Below, in pieces: positions 3,194 through 37,144 of a DNA stretch of 54,408 bases. The stretch comes from Candidatus Doudnabacteria bacterium (GTDB lineage: Bacteria > Patescibacteriota > Doudnabacteria > UBA920 > O2-02-FULL-48-8). The notes under the pieces are model-generated. The model was not told where the DNA came from. It made no database searches and saw nothing but the letters and a program-made list of their open reading frames with translations. Numbering within the stretch: the stretch's first letter is position 1; each line of letters begins with the position of its first letter. The position numbers were made by a program, and so were the translations under genes. The DNA is taken from positions 1 through 54,408 of the forward strand of contig JAHFJG010000008.1 in assembly GCA_023246005.1 (NCBI GenBank), in the 5' to 3' direction.

Positions 3194-3340
3194 CCCCGTA
3201 TATCAACATCGATAATGGTTTTTAATTGCTTTTGCTTATAACCTTTGTTATTTATTATTGTTTAACGTTAATTAGTAAATTAAAAAATTTAGTTAGAAAA
3301 ACCATTTAAAAGGCAAAAGCATCGATGTTGTATTACGGGG
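3194..3340. repeat. Palindromic ~145-nt intergenic element, copy 1
   Basis: The 20-nt arms are CCCCGTATATCAACATCGAT (3194-3213) and ATCGATGTTGTATTACGGGG (3321-3340). Inner pairs are AATGGTTTTT/AAAAACCATT and GCTTTTGC/GCAAAAGC in crossed order. It is homologous to 35392-35532. Confidence 0.6.
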
Positions 3341-3785
3341 TCAACATCACGCTATCTCCAACCTTAATTTTATTCTTCTCACTCCAGCCGGCGTTAACTT
3401 CGACAACGCTATCAATGTCTTCATTAGGCACATAAGTTTGCAGAGGCAAAACCGGCACATTCGGCGTAATTTCAACAACCTTGGCGTTTCGAACCCAAAT
3501 AAAATCCAGTGGAAATTTCATATCTTTCATCCAAAAACCATACTTGTCTGGATTTGAAAAGACAAATAGCATAGCATCATTTTCCGCCAATGAATCGCGG
3601 CCAGACAACCCTTGTGTCCGCGCTGCCTGGGTGTCTGCAACTTGGATATTTAAAACATGTCCACCGATGATTAGGGTATTTTTCTTATTGCAAGCCGCAG
3701 CAAAAAAGGTTAAAGATAACAAAACTAAAAGAATCTTATAATTCCTTATTCCTAATTCTTTATTCCTAATTCCTATATTATTCAT
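3333..3785 (-). CDS. DUF192-family protein, probable lipoprotein
   Basis: The start was chosen at ATG 3785 (signal ...LSLTFFAAAC). GLSGR...MLFVF...GFWMKDMKFPLDFIWV matches DUF192/COG1430. Confidence 0.75.
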   Translation of the reverse strand: MNNIGIRNKELGIRNYKILLVLLSLTFFAAACNKKNTLIIGGHVLNIQVADTQAARTQGLSGRDSLAENDAMLFVFSNPDKYGFWMKDMKFPLDFIWVRNAKVVEITPNVPVLPLQTYVPNEDIDSVVEVNAGWSEKNKIKVGDSVMLTP

Positions 3786-4824
3786 AATTCTTTTTTTCTT
3801 TATATGCTGAAAAAATTGATGCAAAAATCGCCAGCATGACTAAAAACAAAATGACTAGCGCAAATAATTTGCCTCGGGATTGCAAAAACAATGCTGACAC
3901 GCCAAAAATACCGGTTAAAACATATAAAAATATGACAGCTTGGGGTTGACTAAATCCAATTTCAAGCAATTTGAAATGCAAATGCTTGCGATCCCCGCCA
4001 AACGGTGATTGCCGTCGAGCCAGCCTTAGTCCAACCACCCAAATCATATCAAGCAAGGGAATTCCCATAATCAAAAGAGTGGTTGCGATTTTTCCCCCGG
4101 AAACAATGGACAGCACTGCCAGCATGAAGCCGGCCAGAGTCGAGCCGCCCTCGCCCAAATAAATTTTGGCCGGGTAAAAATTCAAAATCAGAAATCCCAG
4201 CAGGCTTCCGGCAAACGTAATGGCCAAAAACGCAGTTTGCGGTTGAGCAACTTGAGGAGTCAGAGATAAACCAAACAAAACCAAAGCGCCGATCACGGAA
4301 ATACCGGTAACTAATCCATCCATGCCATCCAACAACTTAGTCGTATATGTCATGGTCATAGTCCAGGCAAAAACTATTACACCGGAAATCAAAGGAGTTA
4401 ACAAAATCACAGAATTATTCAGAGGATTATGAATGCTCACAGCGCTAACTCCAGACGTCACAAGGACTAGACTTGCCATGGTCGGAAAAATAATAGAATA
4501 TTTGGCAGGCAGTCGATAGCGATCGTCAAGGTACCCTCCAATCATGAGAATCATGCCGCCAATCCAAATTCCCAATAAAACCTTAATGGGGATATTGCCT
4601 GTAAGCAAATAGCCGCCAAGGAGCCCTAAGCCAAAACTGACCAAAAAGAAGCTGGCGAAAATCGCGATTCCGCCAAGTGTCGGTGTGGCTTGTTTATGGA
4701 ATCGCCTCTCATCATCCGGCAGATCCAGAATCTTTCGCTTAACAGCAATTCTCGAAACTATAAAGGTTCCGACAAATGAAATGACAAAGGCTAGTGTAAA
4801 TGAGGCAAAATAAATCAAACGCAT
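3778..4824 (-). CDS. Glycosyltransferase family 4 (WecA/MraY-like polyprenyl-phosphate sugar-1-phosphate transferase)
   Basis: This polytopic membrane protein has the motifs LDDRYRL, LDGMDGL and NFYPAKIYLGEGGS. Confidence 0.85.
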   Translation of the reverse strand: MRLIYFASFTLAFVISFVGTFIVSRIAVKRKILDLPDDERRFHKQATPTLGGIAIFASFFLVSFGLGLLGGYLLTGNIPIKVLLGIWIGGMILMIGGYLDDRYRLPAKYSIIFPTMASLVLVTSGVSAVSIHNPLNNSVILLTPLISGVIVFAWTMTMTYTTKLLDGMDGLVTGISVIGALVLFGLSLTPQVAQPQTAFLAITFAGSLLGFLILNFYPAKIYLGEGGSTLAGFMLAVLSIVSGGKIATTLLIMGIPLLDMIWVVGLRLARRQSPFGGDRKHLHFKLLEIGFSQPQAVIFLYVLTGIFGVSALFLQSRGKLFALVILFLVMLAIFASIFSAYKEKKNYE

Positions 4825-12159: not shown

Positions 12160-12183
12160 TTATAATTAGTTAAAAGTTCGACA

Positions 12184-12214
12184 TTTATACTTGCATACGG
12201 GACAGTATGCAAGT
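12184..12214 (-). promoter_or_regulatory. ftsQ promoter plus palindromic operator (copy 2 of a 30-nt unit)
   Basis: TTGCAT (12212-12207) is followed by a 17-nt spacer and TATAAA (12189-12184). The palindrome is CTTGCATAC-N6-GTATGCAAG. The 30 nt at 12185-12214 are identical to 12742-12771. Confidence 0.6.
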
Positions 12215-12216
12215 AT

Positions 12217-12708
12217 TTAAATAGATAAACTCTTTCTAGCGGTAACCTCTCGCACTCTTCTTCTCAATACCTGATCAGCTTTGCTAAGTCCGCTTTTTAT
12301 CAAATTTTTTACTAAAACAGTTTCACGTAACTTGGGCCAATTTTTGTGCTCCAAATAATCCTGCCGAGAGTTGCGTTTAAGCTGAAAAGATTTCTCTAAG
12401 TCCAGCAATTTTTGATAAGCAATACGCAATCCTTTTCCATCCCTCTCTAAAGTATTGCTAACATTTGAAATTGTTCTCTCTGTCACTTTCAAATTATTCA
12501 TAATTGATTCGTAAGTCTCGCCAGCAAGCAATCTTCTGGCTATTTCAAGTCTCTTTGCGAACATCTTATATTCGGTATGTGTAAATAAATCTTTAAACAG
12601 CAATTTAATTTCCTCTTTAGCATCTATCAAAGTAAAAACAGACCAGAGGTTATTTATATAAAAACCCATTTTTTGAGGATTAATTGGCTTTCGAGATATT
12701 TTTGTCAT
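12217..12708 (-). CDS. TrpR/YerC-like helix-turn-helix regulator
   Basis: The segment FAKRLEIARRLLAGETYESIMNNLKVTERTISNVSN resembles Trp-repressor/YerC family HTH. The gene is bracketed by identical palindromes. Confidence 0.6.
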   Translation of the reverse strand: MTKISRKPINPQKMGFYINNLWSVFTLIDAKEEIKLLFKDLFTHTEYKMFAKRLEIARRLLAGETYESIMNNLKVTERTISNVSNTLERDGKGLRIAYQKLLDLEKSFQLKRNSRQDYLEHKNWPKLRETVLVKNLIKSGLSKADQVLRRRVREVTARKSLSI

Positions 12709-22584: not shown

Positions 22585-22654
22585 GTATTGTCTCTGACAA
22601 AGACGAAAACCGCTTCGCCAACTCGGCCAAGTGACATTAGGAGGAGTACAAGTT

Positions 22655-23119
22655 ATGGCAAAGGTATCTGTCAAACGGTACGTTGAGCAGGTCCGTGACG
22701 GAAGCGAGTACAAAGGTTACCTGAAAATCGCCGAGACCACATTGGACTATGAGCTGAGGTTCGACATCCCGATTGACAAGCTGGATGATTCTGAACTCTT
22801 AGATGGAGTTCATGAAATTCGCCGGGTCTTCCAGCTGACTGTGAAGCGAAACGGAAAGAGGATTGAACTCACCGATGAAGAATATGGCTTCTTCTTCCGG
22901 TTGCTCGTTTTGTTCGCAGTCGAGTTCTACAACAATCCGCGAACTCGTGAAAACAACCAAGGCCTTCTGGGAATGACCTTGCGTGGCAAGGGAGAGATAT
23001 CAGCTTTCGGAGTTTCCTCTTCGATCGGGATTACGAGCAGCAACTCGTATGACATCCCGTCTGGACTGTGTGAGACCTTGAACGCGCCGAAGTTTGGGTG
23101 CGCAATCAACGGCACCTGA
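22655..23119 (+). CDS. Orphan protein B (154 aa), G+C-enriched
   Basis: An AGGAGG SD (22639-22644) lies 10 nt before ATG 22655. The ORF track starts it at GTG 22631. No family was recognised. Confidence 0.5.
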   Translation: MAKVSVKRYVEQVRDGSEYKGYLKIAETTLDYELRFDIPIDKLDDSELLDGVHEIRRVFQLTVKRNGKRIELTDEEYGFFFRLLVLFAVEFYNNPRTRENNQGLLGMTLRGKGEISAFGVSSSIGITSSNSYDIPSGLCETLNAPKFGCAINGT

Positions 23120-23130
23120 ACAATCATGCT

Positions 23131-23214
23131 GGGGACGAAGGTCATCTTGACTTCGTCCCCTCCCCACCATCCCCAAACCCCGACACTACGATCGGGGGTA
23201 AGAGGGATTTTTTT
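23131..23214 (+). terminator. Compound GC-rich terminator of cassette B
   Basis: A 10-bp hairpin GGGGACGAAG/CTTCGTCCCC (23131-23160) is followed by CCCCGA/TCGGGG and a T7 run (23208-23214). Confidence 0.55.
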
Positions 23215-23251
23215 ATTGCCCAAATCTACCCAGGCGAATGCCGAGGTGGGT

Positions 23252-28896: not shown

Positions 28897-28918
28897 AAGG
28901 GCGCAAAATACTTTAATG
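28890..28918 (+). promoter_or_regulatory. Promoter of cassette C
   Basis: TTGACA (28890-28895) is followed by 16-17 nt and TTTAAT/TTAATG (28912-28918). Its -35 overlaps the proS -35 by 5 bp. Confidence 0.5.
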
Positions 28919-29148
28919 TGCAGTGTTCATCAAAGGATTACGAAGTAATTGAAGCTTGCGTCCTTGGCTATATTGCCAGACATGAAGAGCAGCGTATTTT
29001 TCAGGTTCCCGAACGCCGAGAATTAGTTCTGAACATGAGCAAAGGGATCGGTCAATTGCTACATGTGCTCATCATGAAGGCCTTGCAAAAGCGCCTCAGC
29101 AACGCGCACGAACGTGAAGTGTTTCATTGGGCTCAAACGACCGATTAA
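28918..29148 (+). other. Cassette C transcription unit; coding status unresolved (76-codon GTG ORF or ~300-nt RNA)
   Basis: The GTG start coincides with the predicted -10, so it may not be transcribed. There is no SD. G/C-ending codons occur only in the second half. The unit ends at a strong terminator. Confidence 0.3.
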
Positions 29149-29171
29149 ATCCTTCTCACTCTCATCGCTCA

Positions 29172-29222
29172 CCCCATGCCATACCAGACGCAAAAACGTC
29201 TAGGTACAGGGGTTTTCTTTTT
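29172..29222 (+). terminator. Intrinsic terminator of cassette C
   Basis: The structure is CCCC..TACC-[AGACG/CGTCT]-GGTA..GGGG followed by TTTTCTTTTT. The tail GGGGTTTTCTTTTTGCC is identical to that at 34659-34675. Confidence 0.65.
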
Positions 29223-29268
29223 GCCAAAAAGCGAGAAACAAAAATTGACATCACATCAATCTTACTTA

Positions 29269-29308
29269 ATTCTACGCATTTTGACCGATCGGTCAATTTA
29301 CGTATAAT
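29269..29308. promoter_or_regulatory. Palindromic operator TTGACCGATCGGTCAA with -10-like hexamers on both sides (3' of the regulator gene)
   Basis: A perfect 16-bp palindrome lies at 29281-29296. On the + strand TTGACC-16-TATAAT ends at 29303-29308. On the - strand TTGACC-16-TAGAAT ends at 29274-29269. Confidence 0.55.
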
Positions 29309-29319
29309 TCTATTTATCA

Positions 29320-29841
29320 CTATTTGTACATTACTCTACCTTCAATAATACTGACATTAAGCTCAATCTTTAACTCTTTCAACAACTCTTTAAATTCAGG
29401 ATGTAATTCCCAAGGTCCGATCATTACGCTTTTTTGTAAATTAATAAATCCATTATCTTTTAGAAACCTTCTCAAGAACCTTCTTGCTTTGCGCTTGGCT
29501 TCAGGAATATCAAATATAACGATTGTTGCGAAACCGTTGACTTTAGTAATTTTCGGCTTCTTCGAATATGAATATTTCAAACTTTTGGCTCTGCCTAAAT
29601 CAGTGATAGTATAATAAAATTTCTTGTCCTTTTTGACTTTCTTGATTAAACCTTTTCTATTCAATTCCCAAAATGCCCGGGAAACCTTATATCGATCGTA
29701 ATAACGTAGTCTTTGAATGTGATGATTCTTGCCTTCGAATGGATAAGGAATCGCTTCCCCAATATCTCTCAAAAACCACAAAATCTCGTTTGTGACCGAC
29801 TCAACCCTATTTCTTATTTTCCTTTTAGTTGATCTGTTCAT
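29320..29841 (-). CDS. wHTH + Cas2/VapD-like-fold regulator (PaaX-like), paralog 1
   Basis: It has a winged-helix segment (YKVSRAFWELNRKGLIKK...YYTITDLGRAK) and a ferredoxin-like module (TIVIFDIPE..RRFLRRFLKDNGFINLQKSVMIG..VSIIEG). It is a paralog of 34756-35229. Confidence 0.7.
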   Translation of the reverse strand: MNRSTKRKIRNRVESVTNEILWFLRDIGEAIPYPFEGKNHHIQRLRYYDRYKVSRAFWELNRKGLIKKVKKDKKFYYTITDLGRAKSLKYSYSKKPKITKVNGFATIVIFDIPEAKRKARRFLRRFLKDNGFINLQKSVMIGPWELHPEFKELLKELKIELNVSIIEGRVMYK

Positions 29842-29845
29842 ATCA

Positions 29846-29885
29846 AGTATACGTGTTTTGACCGATCGGATATTTTACGTATAAA
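29846..29885. promoter_or_regulatory. Operator/promoter region upstream of paralog 1
   Basis: The 27-nt core at 29858-29884 matches 29281-29307 at 24/27 positions, in direct orientation. On the - strand a TATACT -10 lies 4 nt before the ATG. On the + strand there is TTGACC-16-TATAAA. Confidence 0.5.
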
Positions 29886-34180: not shown

Positions 34181-34540
34181 ATGTCGAACCCGAACCTGGT
34201 GGCCCCGGAGCTCGAGACCCTGGCGCGCGACCTTTCGCAGTCGTCTTCCGTTGAGGTGTTCTACCTCGACGACCAAGGCGCACCGCAGAAGGCCGCGTAC
34301 TACTCCCAATCATTGGGGGACGCCGTCCGTATCGAGATGAAACCACACCTCGTGGTAACTCGTCAGATACAGGACGACTCCGACCCCGAGAGCTGGAGTA
34401 CCGAAGATGTTTCCATCCCACTCGAAAGAGTGCTGATGGCCAACATCTCGGTGAGCGATGAATGGGCTCCCTCCGGGGAGATCCAGTCATCGCAGTGGGT
34501 CAACGGCCCCCACGGCAAACTCCTGCGGCTCGTGCCGTAG
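34181..34540 (+). CDS. Orphan protein E (119 aa), strongly G+C-rich
   Basis: A GGGAGGG SD lies 7 nt before the ATG. G+C is 219/360, and 94/120 codons end in G/C by hand count, which is coding-type periodicity. No family was recognised. Confidence 0.65.
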   Translation: MSNPNLVAPELETLARDLSQSSSVEVFYLDDQGAPQKAAYYSQSLGDAVRIEMKPHLVVTRQIQDDSDPESWSTEDVSIPLERVLMANISVSDEWAPSGEIQSSQWVNGPHGKLLRLVP

Positions 34541-34576: not shown

Positions 34577-34621
34577 GATGGGACATTCTCCCATCCCCGG
34601 CAACAGCTTGTCTGTTGCCGG
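34577..34621 (+). other. Two GC-rich hairpins in the 3' UTR of gene E
   Basis: The hairpins are GATGGGA/TCCCATC (34577-34595) and CCGGCAACAG/CTGTTGCCGG (34597-34621). They lie directly upstream of the terminator. Confidence 0.5.
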
Positions 34622-34626
34622 GCACG

Positions 34627-34672
34627 CCCCGTACCGTCCGCCTCCGGCGGACTGGTGCGGGGTTTTCTTTTT
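34627..34672 (+). terminator. Intrinsic terminator of the D-E operon
   Basis: The structure is CCCCGTACC-[GTCCGCC/GGCGGAC]-GGTGCGGGG followed by TTTTCTTTTT. It has the same architecture and tail as 29172-29222. Confidence 0.7.
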
Positions 34673-34724
34673 GCCCAAAATTATTACTAACTGATTATTA
34701 GTAATATATTACATATTGTCTATA

Positions 34725-34754
34725 TTTTTGTCCGATCGGTCAGTTTTTTAGACA
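34725..34754. promoter_or_regulatory. Operator unit 3' of regulator paralog 2
   Basis: TTTTTGTCCGATCGGTCA... matches 35246-35275 at 27/30 positions, in direct orientation. It ends 1 nt before the regulator's stop codon. Confidence 0.55.
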
Positions 34755-34755
34755 G

Positions 34756-35229
34756 CTAAAAATTATAGTTTATTTTTCCATCAATAATTGAAACATGTGG
34801 TCGAATATTTAATTCTTTAATTATTTGCTTAATATCATCAGTAACAATAAACGGCGCGATCAGTACGCTCTTTTGTAAGTTAATATAACCGCTTCTTTGC
34901 AAATGCCGACGAAAAATTGTGCGTTGCCTGGATTTTTCTTCAGGAATATCAAAAATTATAATGGTACTCAAGCCATCTTGCCTATTTCTTTTTTGGATTG
35001 GTTTATGTAGTAAGCCCCTGCCTTTTGCTGTTAAAAAATATGCGCTTCGACTTCCTGATTTTTTCTTTAAAATCATACCTCGTTTTTCTAGCCTATTAAG
35101 CGTAGCATAATAGGTTGCTCTTGGAATTGGCCTAAATCGCAATTTACCTGGAGGAGTGGTTATAAAAGTTAACAAGCCGTCCGCGGCCTCATCTATCATT
35201 TGTAGTAAATATTCGGCATAACTATTCAT
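34756..35229 (-). CDS. wHTH + Cas2/VapD-like-fold regulator (PaaX-like), paralog 2
   Basis: It has the motifs YYATLNRLEKRGMILKK...YFLTAKGR and TIIIFDIPE..RRHLQRSGYINLQKSVLIAP..VSIIDG. By eye it is about one-third identical to 29320-29841. Confidence 0.7.
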   Translation of the reverse strand: MNSYAEYLLQMIDEAADGLLTFITTPPGKLRFRPIPRATYYATLNRLEKRGMILKKKSGSRSAYFLTAKGRGLLHKPIQKRNRQDGLSTIIIFDIPEEKSRQRTIFRRHLQRSGYINLQKSVLIAPFIVTDDIKQIIKELNIRPHVSIIDGKINYNF

Positions 35230-35235
35230 ACATTG

Positions 35236-35277
35236 ATTGTATAATTTTTTGTCCGATCGGTCAATATTTTATACATT
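35236..35277. promoter_or_regulatory. Divergent promoters sharing the palindromic operator of paralog 2
   Basis: On the - strand TTGACC (35264-59) is followed by a 17-nt spacer and TACAAT (35241-36), with the ATG 6 nt downstream (leaderless). On the + strand TTGTCC (35249-54) is followed by a 17-nt spacer and TACATT (35272-77). Confidence 0.55.
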
Positions 35278-35308
35278 GTCACAAATCTTAATAGATAAAA
35301 TCGACAAA

Positions 35309-35378
35309 AATCAGTAGGTTCTTTTGGATTGATCCTGCAACACTTTTGCGAGGTTCAACTGAACTTACTGATTTTTTT
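35309..35378. terminator. Bidirectional long-range hairpin (13 bp) flanked by A-run and T-run
   Basis: AATCAGTAGGTTC (35309-21) pairs with GAACTTACTGATT (35361-73), with one G-T pair and a 39-nt loop. AAAAA lies upstream and TTTTTTT downstream. Confidence 0.5.
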
Positions 35379-35391
35379 CGTGCGAATTAGG

Positions 35392-35532
35392 CCCAGTATA
35401 TCAACTTCGATAATGGTCTGTCTGCTTTTGCGATCTAGTAAAATTAAACTCTCAATTTTACGTCGATGAACGATCTAGCTTTGATCGGTCCAACCATTTG
35501 AACGCAAAAGCGATCGAAGTTGTATTACTGGG
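35392..35532. repeat. Palindromic ~145-nt intergenic element, copy 2
   Basis: The arms are CCCAGTATATCAACTTCGAT (35392-411) and ATCGAAGTTGTATTACTGGG (35513-32). Inner pairs are AATGGT/ACCATT and GCTTTTGCG/CGCAAAAGC in the same crossed order as copy 1. Confidence 0.6.
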
Positions 35533-35664
35533 TGGGCTTAACCATAATCAGCTTAGATTATCAAAATTTGAGCGTCAAAATAATTTATTATTTATCAAAA
35601 ATATAGCTTTTTTCATAGCGCTGTGTAGAACCTGTGAGCAAACCGTGAGTAAGCAGTGGAGTGG

Positions 35665-35697
35665 ATCCCCGCTTTCGCGGGGATGGTTTTTATTTTT
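35665..35697 (+). terminator. Intrinsic terminator, + strand
   Basis: ATCCCCGC-TTTC-GCGGGGAT is followed by GGTTTTTATTTTT. There is no U-run on the opposite strand. Confidence 0.65.
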
Positions 35698-35725
35698 AAA
35701 ATGCTCAAAAATAAAAAACCAACTT

Positions 35726-35960
35726 AAAAACCACCTTACGGTGATTTTTAATTGAACCGGTGTGCTGCCAAACCCGCTAACTTCGCTCTTACGAACTCCA
35801 CTAGCCTGGGAATTGGTCCAAGAGGTTGCCCTTACTTGTTCTACACCCAAGTCGTTTCTTACTTAAGCGTACCAATTCGGATTCAACAGTGCCTGATCCT
35901 CGAACAGCCTTTTTAGAGCCGTCCTGCCTAATAAAGATTGCTCTTTACCAAGACCATGGT
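35726..35960 (-). ncRNA. Candidate ~235-nt structured RNA of unknown class
   Basis: A consensus promoter lies upstream and a GNRA-capped hairpin plus U5 lies at the 3' end. Several hairpins can be drawn by hand, including UAAAGA-GCAA-UCUUUA and a 38-nt CCC..GCUA..UUCG/CGAA..UAGC..GGG stem. The only ORF runs through two terminators. Confidence 0.55.
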
Positions 35961-35966
35961 GAAAGC

Positions 35967-35995
35967 ATTATAGAAACGACAAAAATATCGGTCAA
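35967..35995 (-). promoter_or_regulatory. Promoter of the candidate structured RNA
   Basis: TTGACC (35995-90) is followed by a 17-nt spacer and TATAAT (35972-67). The -35 is embedded in ATCGGTCAA, which is an operator half-site. Confidence 0.65.
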
Positions 35996-35996
35996 G

Positions 35997-36025
35997 GAAA
36001 AATAAAAACCTATGCAAATCATAGG
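35997..36025 (-). terminator. Intrinsic terminator downstream of the second mreB
   Basis: On the minus strand CCUAUG-AUUUG-CAUAGG is followed by UUUUUAUUUUUU. Confidence 0.6.
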
Positions 36026-36038
36026 ATTTAAAGATTTT

Positions 36039-36090
36039 TTATCCAAATTGTGCATAAACTGTGCGTAAACTTTGGATAATTTGTGCAGAA
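36039..36090. promoter_or_regulatory. Cluster of five DnaA-box-like 9-mers
   Basis: TTATCCAAA (36039-47) and its inverse TTTGGATAA (36071-79) have one mismatch each to TTATCCACA. The + strand also reads TGTGCATAA, TGTGCGTAA and TGTGCAGAA, the reverse complements of TTATGCACA, TTACGCACA and TTCTGCACA. Confidence 0.3.
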
Positions 36091-36136
36091 AAAACCGCAT
36101 TAATTGCAAATGTCAACCTAGCAGGCGAAGTCTGGC

Positions 36137-37144
36137 CTATTTACTAGCCAAAATGCTCTTTTTGTAACTATCCAAATTATCCAAAGCCACGCCAGTGCCT
36201 TTCACAACGCACAAAATCGCGTCTTCAGCCACATAAGCTGGCACCCCGGTTGATTGGCCAATTAGTTTATCCAAATTTTTCAGCAAAGCAGTGCCGCCGG
36301 TCAGAACCATACCCTTGTCTATAATGTCTGCTGCCAATTCAGGCGGGGTTTCCTGCAGGACAGAACGAATGGCTTTGATTATTTCTCTAAGTTCTTCTTG
36401 AATGGCTTCCACGACTTCGTTTGTGGAAATTGTCACAGTCTTGGGCAAACCTTGCAGCATATCGCGCCCACGGATTTCCATGGTCAGTTCTTTTTCCACT
36501 GGCATGGCCGAGCCAATTCTGATTTTAATTTCTTCAGCCGTTCTGTCCCCCACTGCCAAACCGTATTTTTTTTTGATAAAATCCGCAATCGCCTGGTCCA
36601 TTTTATTACCCGCTACCCGCACAGAGGTTTGAGTGACAATACCGCCAAGGGACAGAATCGCCACATCAGTCGTCCCGCCGCCCATATCTATAACCATATT
36701 GCCAGAGGCTGCAGAAATATCAATGCCAGCGCCAATAGCCGCGGCCACTGTTTCCTTAATTACAAAAGCCGCTTTTGCCCCTGCGGCTTGAGCCGCGTCA
36801 ATCACGGCCCGGCGTTCCGTGGAGGTAATGCCTCCTGGAACTGAAATCATGACTTCTGGGCGAAAAAATCTGACATTGCCAACGGTCTTGTTTATAAAAT
36901 AACGAAGCATAGCTTCGGTTATGCGATAATCAGCAATCACACCATCCTTCATTGGTCGATGCGCTACAATCGTATCAGGAGTCCGCCCCAGCATTTCTTT
37001 GGCTTCCGCTCCCACAGCCAAAATTCGATTATCAATAATCGAAATCGCAACCACGGTTGGCTCGTTGATGACTATGCCTTTTTTCGGCACATAAACTAAG
37101 GTGTTGGCTGTGCCTAAATCAATCCCAATCTTTTTTAAAAACAT
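36137..37144 (-). CDS. MreB-like actin homolog (second paralog)
   Basis: The start was chosen at ATG 37144 (MFLKKIGIDLGTANTLVY). It has the motif DMGGGTTDVAIL. It lies downstream of murA-murB. Confidence 0.88.
   Translation of the reverse strand: MFLKKIGIDLGTANTLVYVPKKGIVINEPTVVAISIIDNRILAVGAEAKEMLGRTPDTIVAHRPMKDGVIADYRITEAMLRYFINKTVGNVRFFRPEVMISVPGGITSTERRAVIDAAQAAGAKAAFVIKETVAAAIGAGIDISAASGNMVIDMGGGTTDVAILSLGGIVTQTSVRVAGNKMDQAIADFIKKKYGLAVGDRTAEEIKIRIGSAMPVEKELTMEIRGRDMLQGLPKTVTISTNEVVEAIQEELREIIKAIRSVLQETPPELAADIIDKGMVLTGGTALLKNLDKLIGQSTGVPAYVAEDAILCVVKGTGVALDNLDSYKKSILASK

Follow-up and report, generated by a model that had tools for sequence, protein, structure and literature searches.

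Why should a small gene be bracketed by direct copies of one and the same palindromic unit? The question is raised by a short open reading frame (ORF), here called paralog 1, on contig JAHFJG010000008.1 of a Candidatus Doudnabacteria bacterium, in a stretch of 54,408 nucleotides that was analysed as a whole and that we refer to as the window. Paralog 1 sits between rseP and proS, with frr and mreB also among its neighbours, and the same window holds a second gene of this kind (paralog 2, 38-41% identical at the protein level) that is bracketed in the same manner. The answer that we hold to be probable, from comparing sequences across a large protein family, is that paralog 1 encodes a minimal PaaX-type autorepressor, and that the two copies of a composite palindrome around its own gene would serve as its operators.

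The original prediction had read the product by eye as a winged helix joined to a Cas2-like fold, and this reading was borne out by domain profiles, structure prediction and structure comparison alike. Paralog 1 reaches 57.7 bits (1.2e-15; cut-off 24) against Pfam PaaX_M (PF20803, 'PaaX central Cas2-like domain'), 27.4 bits (3.8e-6; cut-off 23.8) against Pfam CRISPR_Cas2 (PF09827) and 27.7 bits (cut-off 24.5) against the NCBIfam Cas2 model TIGR01573. In its AlphaFold2 model (predicted local distance difference test score, pLDDT, 76.6), three helices and a beta-hairpin wing form a winged helix at residues 3-79, with the predicted recognition helix at residues 50-62 and the wing at 66-79, followed by a linker helix and a beta-alpha-beta-beta-alpha-beta domain at residues 104-169. 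Foldseek ranked E. coli PaaX (8a39, E = 3.7e-5) first among PDB structures, ahead of MarR/PadR-type winged helices and type II-A Cas2 chains at 27-33% identity; the winged-helix part also matches the winged helix-turn-helix domains of MarR, PadR, AspA and PaaX. PADLOC returned only Cas2 models, and a single-sequence search of solved structures gave nothing informative.

How close is this protein to PaaX? PaaX is the phenylacetyl-CoA-responsive repressor of paa operons in E. coli and Pseudomonas (PDB 8a39, 3l09), composed of PF07848, PF20803 and PaaX_C. The proposed PaaX-family likeness held in part: the PaaX_M score, the structural match and the order of a N-terminal winged helix before a Cas2-like middle domain are common to both, but paralog 1 is not a canonical PaaX. 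It has no Pfam match to the PaaX_C effector domain and ends at residue 173, straight after the Cas2-like domain, it scores 27.3 bits on the PaaX equivalog TIGR02277 (PaaX_trns_reg), where 264.55 are required, and there are no paa catabolic genes among its neighbours. It likewise fails the VapD equivalog NF041506 (13.7 bits vs a cut-off of 100), and Pfam PaaX (PF07848) remains below its cut-off, with 18.5 vs 24.8 bits for paralog 2 and paralog 1 unlisted. On the other hand, its Cas2-like domain carries the signature IFDIPE...R...R..L....Q.SV, and a profile alignment with solved Cas2 proteins yields the common motif FDxP...FRkfL..GFi..QkSV, in which the FDIP Asp aligns with the FDLP/FDMP of solved Cas2 chains. 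The Asp of Cas2 beta-1 is thus kept, whereas E. coli PaaX has LSEG at this position and has lost the signature. Given the Pfam and NCBIfam scores, the model, the kept Asp and the missing PaaX_C, the product is a short PaaX-like form, nearer to Cas2 than PaaX itself is, without an effector-binding domain. Long-form members of the family keep the PaaX C-terminal domain; one of them, at locus L019, combines it with FDIPE and matches PaaX at 4e-12.

The family is large. A profile search of 1.84 billion cluster representatives returned 5,365 relatives at E <= 1e-3, that is, a family of ~5,400 clusters at 50% identity, mostly of 150-200 aa among the 150 best matches listed, and a genome scan gave 80 loci for comparison (labelled L001 onward). 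Unlike PaaX, it is almost exclusively a family of the Candidate Phyla Radiation (CPR/Patescibacteria), including Doudnabacteria, Saccharibacteria, Daviesbacteria, Paceibacteria and others, and several genomes hold two to three divergent paralogs. Among 153 representatives D111 and S138 are conserved at 100%, R120 and R124 at 99%, and F110 and Q136 at 97%; the invariant residues are F110, D111, E114, R120, R124, Q136 and S138. The winged-helix part varies between paralogs, with a mean top-residue frequency of 0.22-0.37. Orthologs of paralog 1 in Candidatus Doudnabacteria are 65-77% identical, occupy the same position between rseP and proS and are flanked by direct repeats. One locus, L022, lies on a contig labelled Candidatus Nanoarchaeia of the DPANN archaea (DATBWR010000004.1) and holds a family member with palindromes on both sides; its neighbours are compatible with either gene transfer or a binning error.

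The second main element of the argument is the DNA on either side of the gene. As originally claimed, a 27-nt core, TTGACCGATCGGnnAnTTTACGTATAA, flanks paralog 1 on both sides: it occurs exactly twice in the window, at 29281-29307 and 29858-29884, both times on the plus strand and thus in direct orientation, with 24/27 identical positions and no match in any of 100 shuffled sequences. The repeat unit is in fact longer, spanning 40 nt (29268-29307 and 29845-29884; 83% identical, 577 nt apart). Read on the gene strand, the upstream copy is TACGTA-N7-CGATCG-N7-CACGTA with its centre at 29863-29868, while the downstream copy has its CGATCG at 29286-29291 between the arms TACGCA and TACGTA. Inside the larger quasi-palindrome of the downstream copy we also found the perfect 16-bp palindrome TTGACCGATCGGTCAA (29281-29296) that had been described there; this copy is one of only five palindromes in the window with at least 14 of 19 paired positions. 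The two units of paralog 2 are 85% identical to each other, and the arm changes that distinguish its downstream copy are mirrored on both sides. Palindromes of this type are not dispersed, the window containing the four flanking copies only.

Is the bracket peculiar to this genome? The exact core CCGATCGG proved absent in L001-L004, which showed the sequence next to it to vary from genome to genome, and a generic search was therefore adopted in which each fetched locus (3-6.5 kb) was scanned for a palindrome with a CGATCG-like centre. In 75 loci counted, such a palindrome is present on both sides of the family gene in 49, upstream only in 12, downstream only in 7 and on neither side in 7, compared with 17 of 1205 background windows; the median centre positions are -32 from the start upstream and +26 from the stop downstream. 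Across the fetched loci, 100 of 116 such palindromes sit in the immediate flanks of a family gene. The interpretation of the flanking units as putative operators is strongly supported by this recurrence across the protein family. Three-copy arrangements also occur. For example, L001 5963-7185 (= L085 9963-11185) consists of a palindrome, a regulator gene, a degenerate palindrome that overlaps the 3' end of this gene, a 192-aa gene with no Pfam or PADLOC match, and a third palindrome; further cases are L013, L034, L045, L053 and L067. In the last of these, short G/C-rich hairpin repeats resembling repetitive extragenic palindromic (REP) sequences (e.g., CCTCCCCCTTCCCAAAGGGAAGGGGGAGG) lie at 3217-3740, between the family gene and the second palindrome.

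The anatomy of the palindrome suggests how it might be read. The complementary fraction is ~0.9 at positions 1-4 from the dyad, ~0.6 at 5-11, 0.77-0.88 at 12-18, 0.58 at 19 and ~0.35 beyond; because pairing drops beyond position 18-19, the family element is 36-38 bp long, with a conserved centre, a spacer rich in A/T and two outer arms of 7 bp, ~30 bp apart from centre to centre. The centre is CGATCG in 57 of 98 copies and CGGCCG in 15, the remainder being one-base variants, and it is conserved across phylum-level CPR lineages (Doudnabacteria, Saccharibacteria, Daviesbacteria and others). The arms, by contrast, are specific to each locus: the upstream and downstream arms of a gene agree at 11.4 of 14 positions, as opposed to 4.3 of 14 for different loci, and arms differ between paralogs of one genome (L010, L012, L015 and the two paralogs of the window). 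Since variable arms go with a variable winged helix, and an invariant centre with an invariant Cas2-like domain, this pattern suggests that the winged helix reads the arms and the Cas2-like domain the centre. These results also bear on the simplest alternative, namely that there is no specific relationship between protein and DNA and that the units are ordinary duplicated promoter or terminator sequence, palindromic by coincidence. The units do carry sigma-70-like hexamers, yet many arms contain G and C and are unlike promoter hexamers (L019, L046, L059 and L068), the locus-specific arms match on both sides of each gene, the centre is invariant between distant lineages and 100 of the 116 palindromes adjoin family genes, which makes coincidence extremely improbable.

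The upstream copy coincides with what looks like the promoter of the gene. Out of 61 loci having an upstream copy, 37 have the palindrome within 36 nt of the start codon; a Shine-Dalgarno sequence is missing in 34 of these 37, a TAnnnT hexamer ends 3-10 nt ahead of the ATG in 22 of them, and a TTGAC-like -35 lies beside the centre or within the left arm. Where promoter-proximal loci have both copies (27 loci), a sense -10-like hexamer is found in 22 of the upstream but only 13 of the downstream copies (p = 0.02). Paralog 1 has a -10-like TATACT on the minus strand at 29846-29851, 4 nt ahead of its ATG, and no Shine-Dalgarno sequence, and the upstream unit of paralog 2 overlaps TTGACC-17-TACAAT, which ends 6 nt ahead of the ATG. 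A protein bound to the upstream palindrome would therefore block access to this promoter, whose mRNA would have a leader that is very short or missing altogether. This is a further likeness to E. coli PaaX, which binds TGATTC-N27-GAATCA and represses its own promoter (PMC9493321): the site overlaps the protein's own -35/-10 in both, autorepression being established in PaaX and predicted here, and the predicted sites have the same layout of two far-apart inverted hexamers, with N27 in PaaX, TACGTA-N20-TACGTA for paralog 1 and TGTATA-N26-TATACA for paralog 2. The family differs from PaaX in having a second predicted operator right after the stop codon and a conserved CGATCG on the dyad.

What, then, is the downstream copy for? 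It is present whichever direction the next gene has (36 of 46 co-directional vs 20 of 28 convergent neighbours, p = 0.58), including before large convergent genes, and is therefore not simply the operator of that gene; the genes that follow are mostly unrelated housekeeping genes. The original prediction had treated the 3' copy as a divergent promoter. A consensus scan did find both of the proposed sites, TTGACC-16-TATAAT on the plus strand (29281-29308; 11/12 consensus matches) and TTGACC-16-TAGAAT on the minus strand (29296-29269; 10/12), but in the family antisense and sense -10-like hexamers occur in 15 and 13 of the 27 downstream copies, respectively, no more than baseline. Given this lack of -10 enrichment, the independence from the next gene's direction and the direct orientation of the copies, the downstream copy belongs to the unit itself and has more the look of a binding site than of a promoter. 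We also considered whether the downstream copy is the better palindrome, and rejected this: overall it has 13.6 paired positions of 18 vs 13.8 upstream, and only in the Daviesbacteria clade does it pair better. As a separate observation, some downstream partners recur, namely a Fic/DOC gene in Daviesbacteria (L032, L040, L052 and L055; Pfam-confirmed for L032) and, judged from sequence only, FemAB-like (L063, L081) and RNase HII-like (L031, L050) genes; in several of these loci the position of the palindrome relative to the ATG is the same for the partner as for the regulator.

Table 1. Features of the window around the two bracketed genes
Feature	Position	Strand	Basis and remarks
Paralog 1 gene	29320..29841	-	ORF, 173 aa (stop codon included in coordinates); winged helix + Cas2-like domain
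Winged-helix DNA-binding part of paralog 1, residues 3-79	29605..29835	-	AlphaFold2 secondary structure
Cas2-like ferredoxin-fold domain of paralog 1, residues 104-169	29335..29532	-	PaaX_M and CRISPR_Cas2 matches
Upstream (5') copy of paralog 1 unit	29845..29884		Repeat finder; ends 4 nt before start codon
Downstream (3') copy of paralog 1 unit (quasi-palindrome)	29268..29309		Palindrome scan, repeat finder
Two back-to-back putative promoter-like sites in 3' copy	29269..29308	both	Consensus scan
Paralog 2 gene, same architecture	34756..35229	-	157 aa; PaaX_M 51.5 bits, 1.1e-13
Paralog 2 upstream unit, TGTATA-N10-CGATCG-N10-TATACA	35236..35275		Repeat finder
Paralog 2 downstream unit, TGTCTA-N10-CGATCG-N10-TAGACA	34715..34754		Repeat finder
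Cassette C, 76-aa ORF convergent with the regulator gene	28918..29148	+	Orphan; GC 0.47 vs 0.42 in the window
Intrinsic-terminator-like hairpin of cassette C	29170..29225	+	Tail GGGGTTTTCTTTTTGCC at 29209-29225
119-aa convergent gene, adjoins paralog 2 3' unit	34181..34540	+	GC 0.61; followed by terminator, tail 34659-34675

The genes near the brackets in the window could suggest another role for the downstream unit. A module of cassette, terminator, palindromic unit, regulator and second unit, which the original prediction had described as a repeated one with foreign cassettes, occurs twice in the window and twice in L001 (Table 1). The tail GGGGTTTTCTTTTTGCC is found at 29209 and again at 34659, and the stem of the cassette C terminator shows compensatory differences from its copy at 34610-34675. 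The cassettes are compositionally odd, with GC contents of up to 0.61-0.64, and their proteins have no Pfam or PADLOC match; that of cassette C has no homolog except itself among 5.8 billion proteins, and the 119-aa protein has only four others, all on contigs shorter than 2 kb. Furthermore, of eight genes in this clade that end in a TTTTCTTTTT(GCC) tail, seven have a family-type palindrome at a distance of 0-75 nt (two each in the window and L001, and one each in L087, L090 and L091), whether or not a regulator gene stands beside them. In line with the original prediction, one may picture the protein as a local regulator of adjacent foreign cassettes, which controls or silences newly acquired genes through a regulated bidirectional promoter in the 3' unit, the leftward transcript running antisense through cassette C toward proS and the rightward one antisense to the regulator. 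Both promoter-like sites do exist there. Still, we judge this quite unlikely, for the link is real in this clade, also where the regulator gene is absent (L087, L090 and L091), but not across the family: the survey of homologs found no GC excess downstream of the family gene in 78 loci, so that no general high-GC island was seen beside these genes, and only close relatives of the window have the terminator tail. In addition, downstream copies lack -10 enrichment in either direction, the 3' copy of paralog 2 has lost its -10 T (GACAAT in place of TACAAT), the L004 ortholog has the 3' unit but no cassette, and the gap between terminator tail and palindrome varies.

Several observations belong beside these cassettes. 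The exception to the pairing of tail and palindrome is a third convergent cassette in the window (22631-23220, plus strand), a 162-aa ORF of GC 0.50 that ends in a hairpin with a similar tail, GGGATTTTTTTATTGCCCAAA at 23204, with neither a regulator gene nor a family-type palindrome beside it. Solo family-type palindromes without an adjacent family gene were seen in L087 (~605-646), L088 (1061-1092), L090 (1853-1884) and L091 (1576-1607), and in L087, L090 and L091 a terminator that has the TTTTCTTTTT tail stands 10-75 nt away. L087 represents the paralog-2 site of a closely related contig, and its cassette protein is 84% identical to that of the window.

Returning to the autorepressor, the mechanism that we favour would work as follows. 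The protein would dimerise through its Cas2-like domain, as Cas2 and PaaX do, and bind the composite palindrome of 36-40 bp, such that the two winged helices would read the outer arms, 12-18 bp either side of the dyad, and the invariant CGATCG would lie on the dyad beneath the Cas2-like dimer. With the arms at this distance, their centres are ~30 bp, or three helical turns, apart. The upstream site overlaps the -35/-10 of the gene and its start codon, which has no Shine-Dalgarno sequence; binding there would shut the gene off, while the second site after the stop codon would be an auxiliary operator of the same protein, most likely acting by looping the ~0.55-kb gene or as an insulating roadblock. 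The solo palindromes of L088, L090 and L091, which are of the paralog-1 type and have no family gene nearby, are expected for the targets of a trans-acting protein. Such an arrangement recalls looping repressors (lac O1/O2/O3, gal OE/OI and deo), where an operator over the promoter likewise has a partner within or beyond the regulated gene, at a distance of a few hundred bp. The differences are that looping is only predicted here, that the loop would enclose the repressor's own gene, and that the arrangement is kept by an entire protein family, not just by one operon.

This leads us to an important caveat, as a number of observations sit uneasily with an autorepressor. A repressor whose detectable sites lie only around its own gene has no obvious physiological output, this predicted regulator lacks an effector domain, and looping and roadblock are guesses as to what the downstream site does. 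The Cas2 signature, including the Asp at the catalytic position, is 97-100% conserved although E. coli PaaX has lost it, and a pure dimerisation scaffold does not explain such conservation. Moreover, the two copies evolve in concert, with 30-36 of 36 positions matching within a genome vs 25-29 of 36 between orthologous copies; arm differences between the two copies are mirrored across the dyad more often than expected (26 observed vs 15), and compensatory ones are likewise in excess (11 vs 2.8; p < 0.0005); and sense-strand arm mismatches are G:T rather than A:C (43 vs 15; counted per copy, a G:T excess in 31 vs 7, p = 1e-4). Concerted evolution, mirrored changes and the G:T bias are also compatible with a hairpin or with a process based on recombination.

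A hairpin could act at the RNA level. The palindromes would then be stem-loops of the transcript, involved in stability, processing or termination, and bound or cut by the Cas2/VapD-like domain in a form of post-transcriptional control. Some Cas2 proteins and VapD have been reported as RNases, and the G:T bias as well as the mirrored and compensatory arm changes would be in keeping with such an element. We nevertheless regard it as very unlikely. The 37 promoter-proximal upstream copies hold the -35/-10 inside the palindrome, with the ATG 3-10 nt after the -10, which would leave the upstream palindrome outside the transcript. As for the bias, it peaks in exactly these upstream copies (25 to 6), in which it is confounded by the constraints of promoter and ATG, and is not significant in the downstream ones (18 to 9). 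Additionally, the paralog 1 spacers AAAT and AAAA are unable to pair, no U-tract follows the 3' copy, and template switching between the arms of a quasi-palindrome can yield mirrored changes without selection.

A recombination-based process would instead point to a selfish or mobile unit, in which palindrome, gene and palindrome form an autonomous whole: the winged helix would target palindromes, the Cas2-like domain, whose catalytic Asp is intact, would cut or recombine at CGATCG, the direct repeats would be target-site or repeat duplications or recombination sites, and solo palindromes would be scars or empty targets. There is a good deal that such a unit would account for. Repeat identity stops at the palindrome borders and the copies are perfect in several loci (40/40 in L005 and L025, 38/38 in L056; the copies of L004/L005 agree at all 40 nt, ATG included), direct orientation prevails (31 loci vs 5, p = 1e-5), and the copies evolve in concert. 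The gene has a lower GC content than its surroundings in 96% of loci, by 5 GC points on average (82 family loci); genomes hold several divergent paralogs among unrelated housekeeping genes, and the Cas2 signature is invariant. The paralog-2 site shows rapid turnover, with a CGATCG-type unit in the window, a CCATATGG-type one in L085, a solo 36-bp palindrome in L087 and nothing in L004. At this position L085 has a family member only 25% identical to that of the window, with a different palindrome, ACCTAGTTGCCCATATGGGCAACTAGGT, whose centre is CCATATGG and not CGATCG, on both sides of the gene (3925-3955 and 4525-4560). Even so, we consider a mobile unit unlikely. No integrase, transposase or Cas1 gene lies nearby, to our knowledge no integrase activity is known for Cas2 alone, and searches of IMG/VR and of plasmid and phage collections found no relatives. 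Three genomes whose paralog 1 proteins have diverged to 65-69% identity keep the gene between rseP and proS, every palindrome is symmetric within itself and not the left/right hybrid that central recombination would give, upstream copies are built into working-looking promoters, and the empty site of L004 shows no precise excision scar. REP sequences with their RAYT proteins and IS200/IS605 elements, in which a gene's own product recognises the hairpin-forming repeats around it, offer a comparable picture of a gene bracketed by imperfect palindromes, with a ferredoxin-like domain and strand-biased mismatches. However, neither a HUH motif nor a catalytic Tyr is present among the conserved columns, where the invariant residues are D, E, K, R, R, Q and S, nor was there a corresponding Pfam match, orthologs keep a stable chromosomal position, and the palindromes are confined to the four flanking copies in the window where REP sequences are dispersed.

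The most far-reaching variant connects the bracket to Cas2 itself. The Cas2-like domain passes two Cas2 profile cut-offs, shares the Cas2 motif and superposes on type II-A Cas2, and the adjoining direct repeat, palindromic and ~36-40 bp long, has the size of a CRISPR repeat. It is conceivable, if decidedly improbable and even a shade less likely than RNA-level control, that a Cas2-like protein makes and maintains repeat-insert-repeat structures, its Asp pair nicking or recombining at the CGATCG dyad and thereby duplicating and homogenising the repeat around its own gene. If true, this would provide a landing site for foreign high-GC cassettes in the clade of the window, and would represent a Cas1-independent relative or forerunner of CRISPR repeat handling, or a new class of selfish elements in CPR. 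The differences from CRISPR Cas2 are plain, though: the domain is no stand-alone protein of ~90-110 aa but is fused to 100 aa of winged-helix part; there is no cas1, and no tandem or CRISPR array in the window, the neighbours being rseP and proS, as in the orthologous loci; and there are two, rarely three, repeats, between which the insert is the gene itself.

A few features of the window lie outside the two brackets. Another of its five strong palindromes, the hairpin ATACTTGCATAC-N6-GTATGCAAGTAT, lies at 12182-12220 between two minus-strand genes. The listed ORF of proS begins at TTG, and a promoter-like site, TTGTCA-17-TATAAT with an extended TG, falls within its first codons (28896-28868, minus strand); the true start of proS is probably the internal Met of MLQSELF. 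Upstream of paralog 2, a conserved element of ~230 nt resembling a non-coding RNA occupies 35740-35995 on the minus strand, with a candidate promoter TTGACC-17-TATAAT at 35995-35967 and a terminator-like hairpin at 35751-35724; it is common to L004 (~1640-1900) and L087 (~1010-1250, opposite strand) and matches no Rfam family above threshold. Between it and paralog 2 lies a second conserved non-coding stretch (35300-35545, minus strand), which starts with GGTTAAGCCCA, has inverted repeats at 35302-35380 and at 35392-35411 with 35513-35532, and has similar sequence in L004 and L087. Rfam and tRNA scans of the window returned nothing at gathering thresholds, and a permissive scan of 35230-36140 only sub-threshold matches.

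The finding has implications for how these proteins are annotated and for what may be done with them. Public records label family members 'CRISPR-associated endonuclease Cas2' (e.g., P0005 and P0009) or 'PaaX'. As they are winged-helix fusions with no cas1 or CRISPR array near the loci examined, the Cas2 labels look misleading and apparently reflect a systematic annotation artefact, flagged here for genes around which no CRISPR context was seen. Full-text literature searches found no description of the family or of its flanking palindromes. Pfam already includes this domain architecture; what appears to be new is the bracket found throughout the family, together with the anatomy of the palindromic site and the kept Cas2 signature.

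CPR bacteria account for much of bacterial diversity, and the bracket layout, present in about two thirds of the related genes examined, points to a large undescribed family of self-bracketed predicted regulators among them. For this family of ~5,400 clusters, comparative analysis predicts the binding site as a palindrome of 36-40 bp with paralog-specific arms. Work on the cultivable Saccharibacteria would thereby gain a direct handle, namely orthogonal predicted pairs of repressor and operator, and predicted promoters whose genes start without a Shine-Dalgarno sequence. Overall, a Cas2 homolog with all its signature residues apparently forms the core of a sequence-specific DNA-binding protein on a palindrome the size of a CRISPR repeat, which bears on the relationships between PaaX, VapD and Cas2 and on the role that Cas2 may have had before CRISPR.

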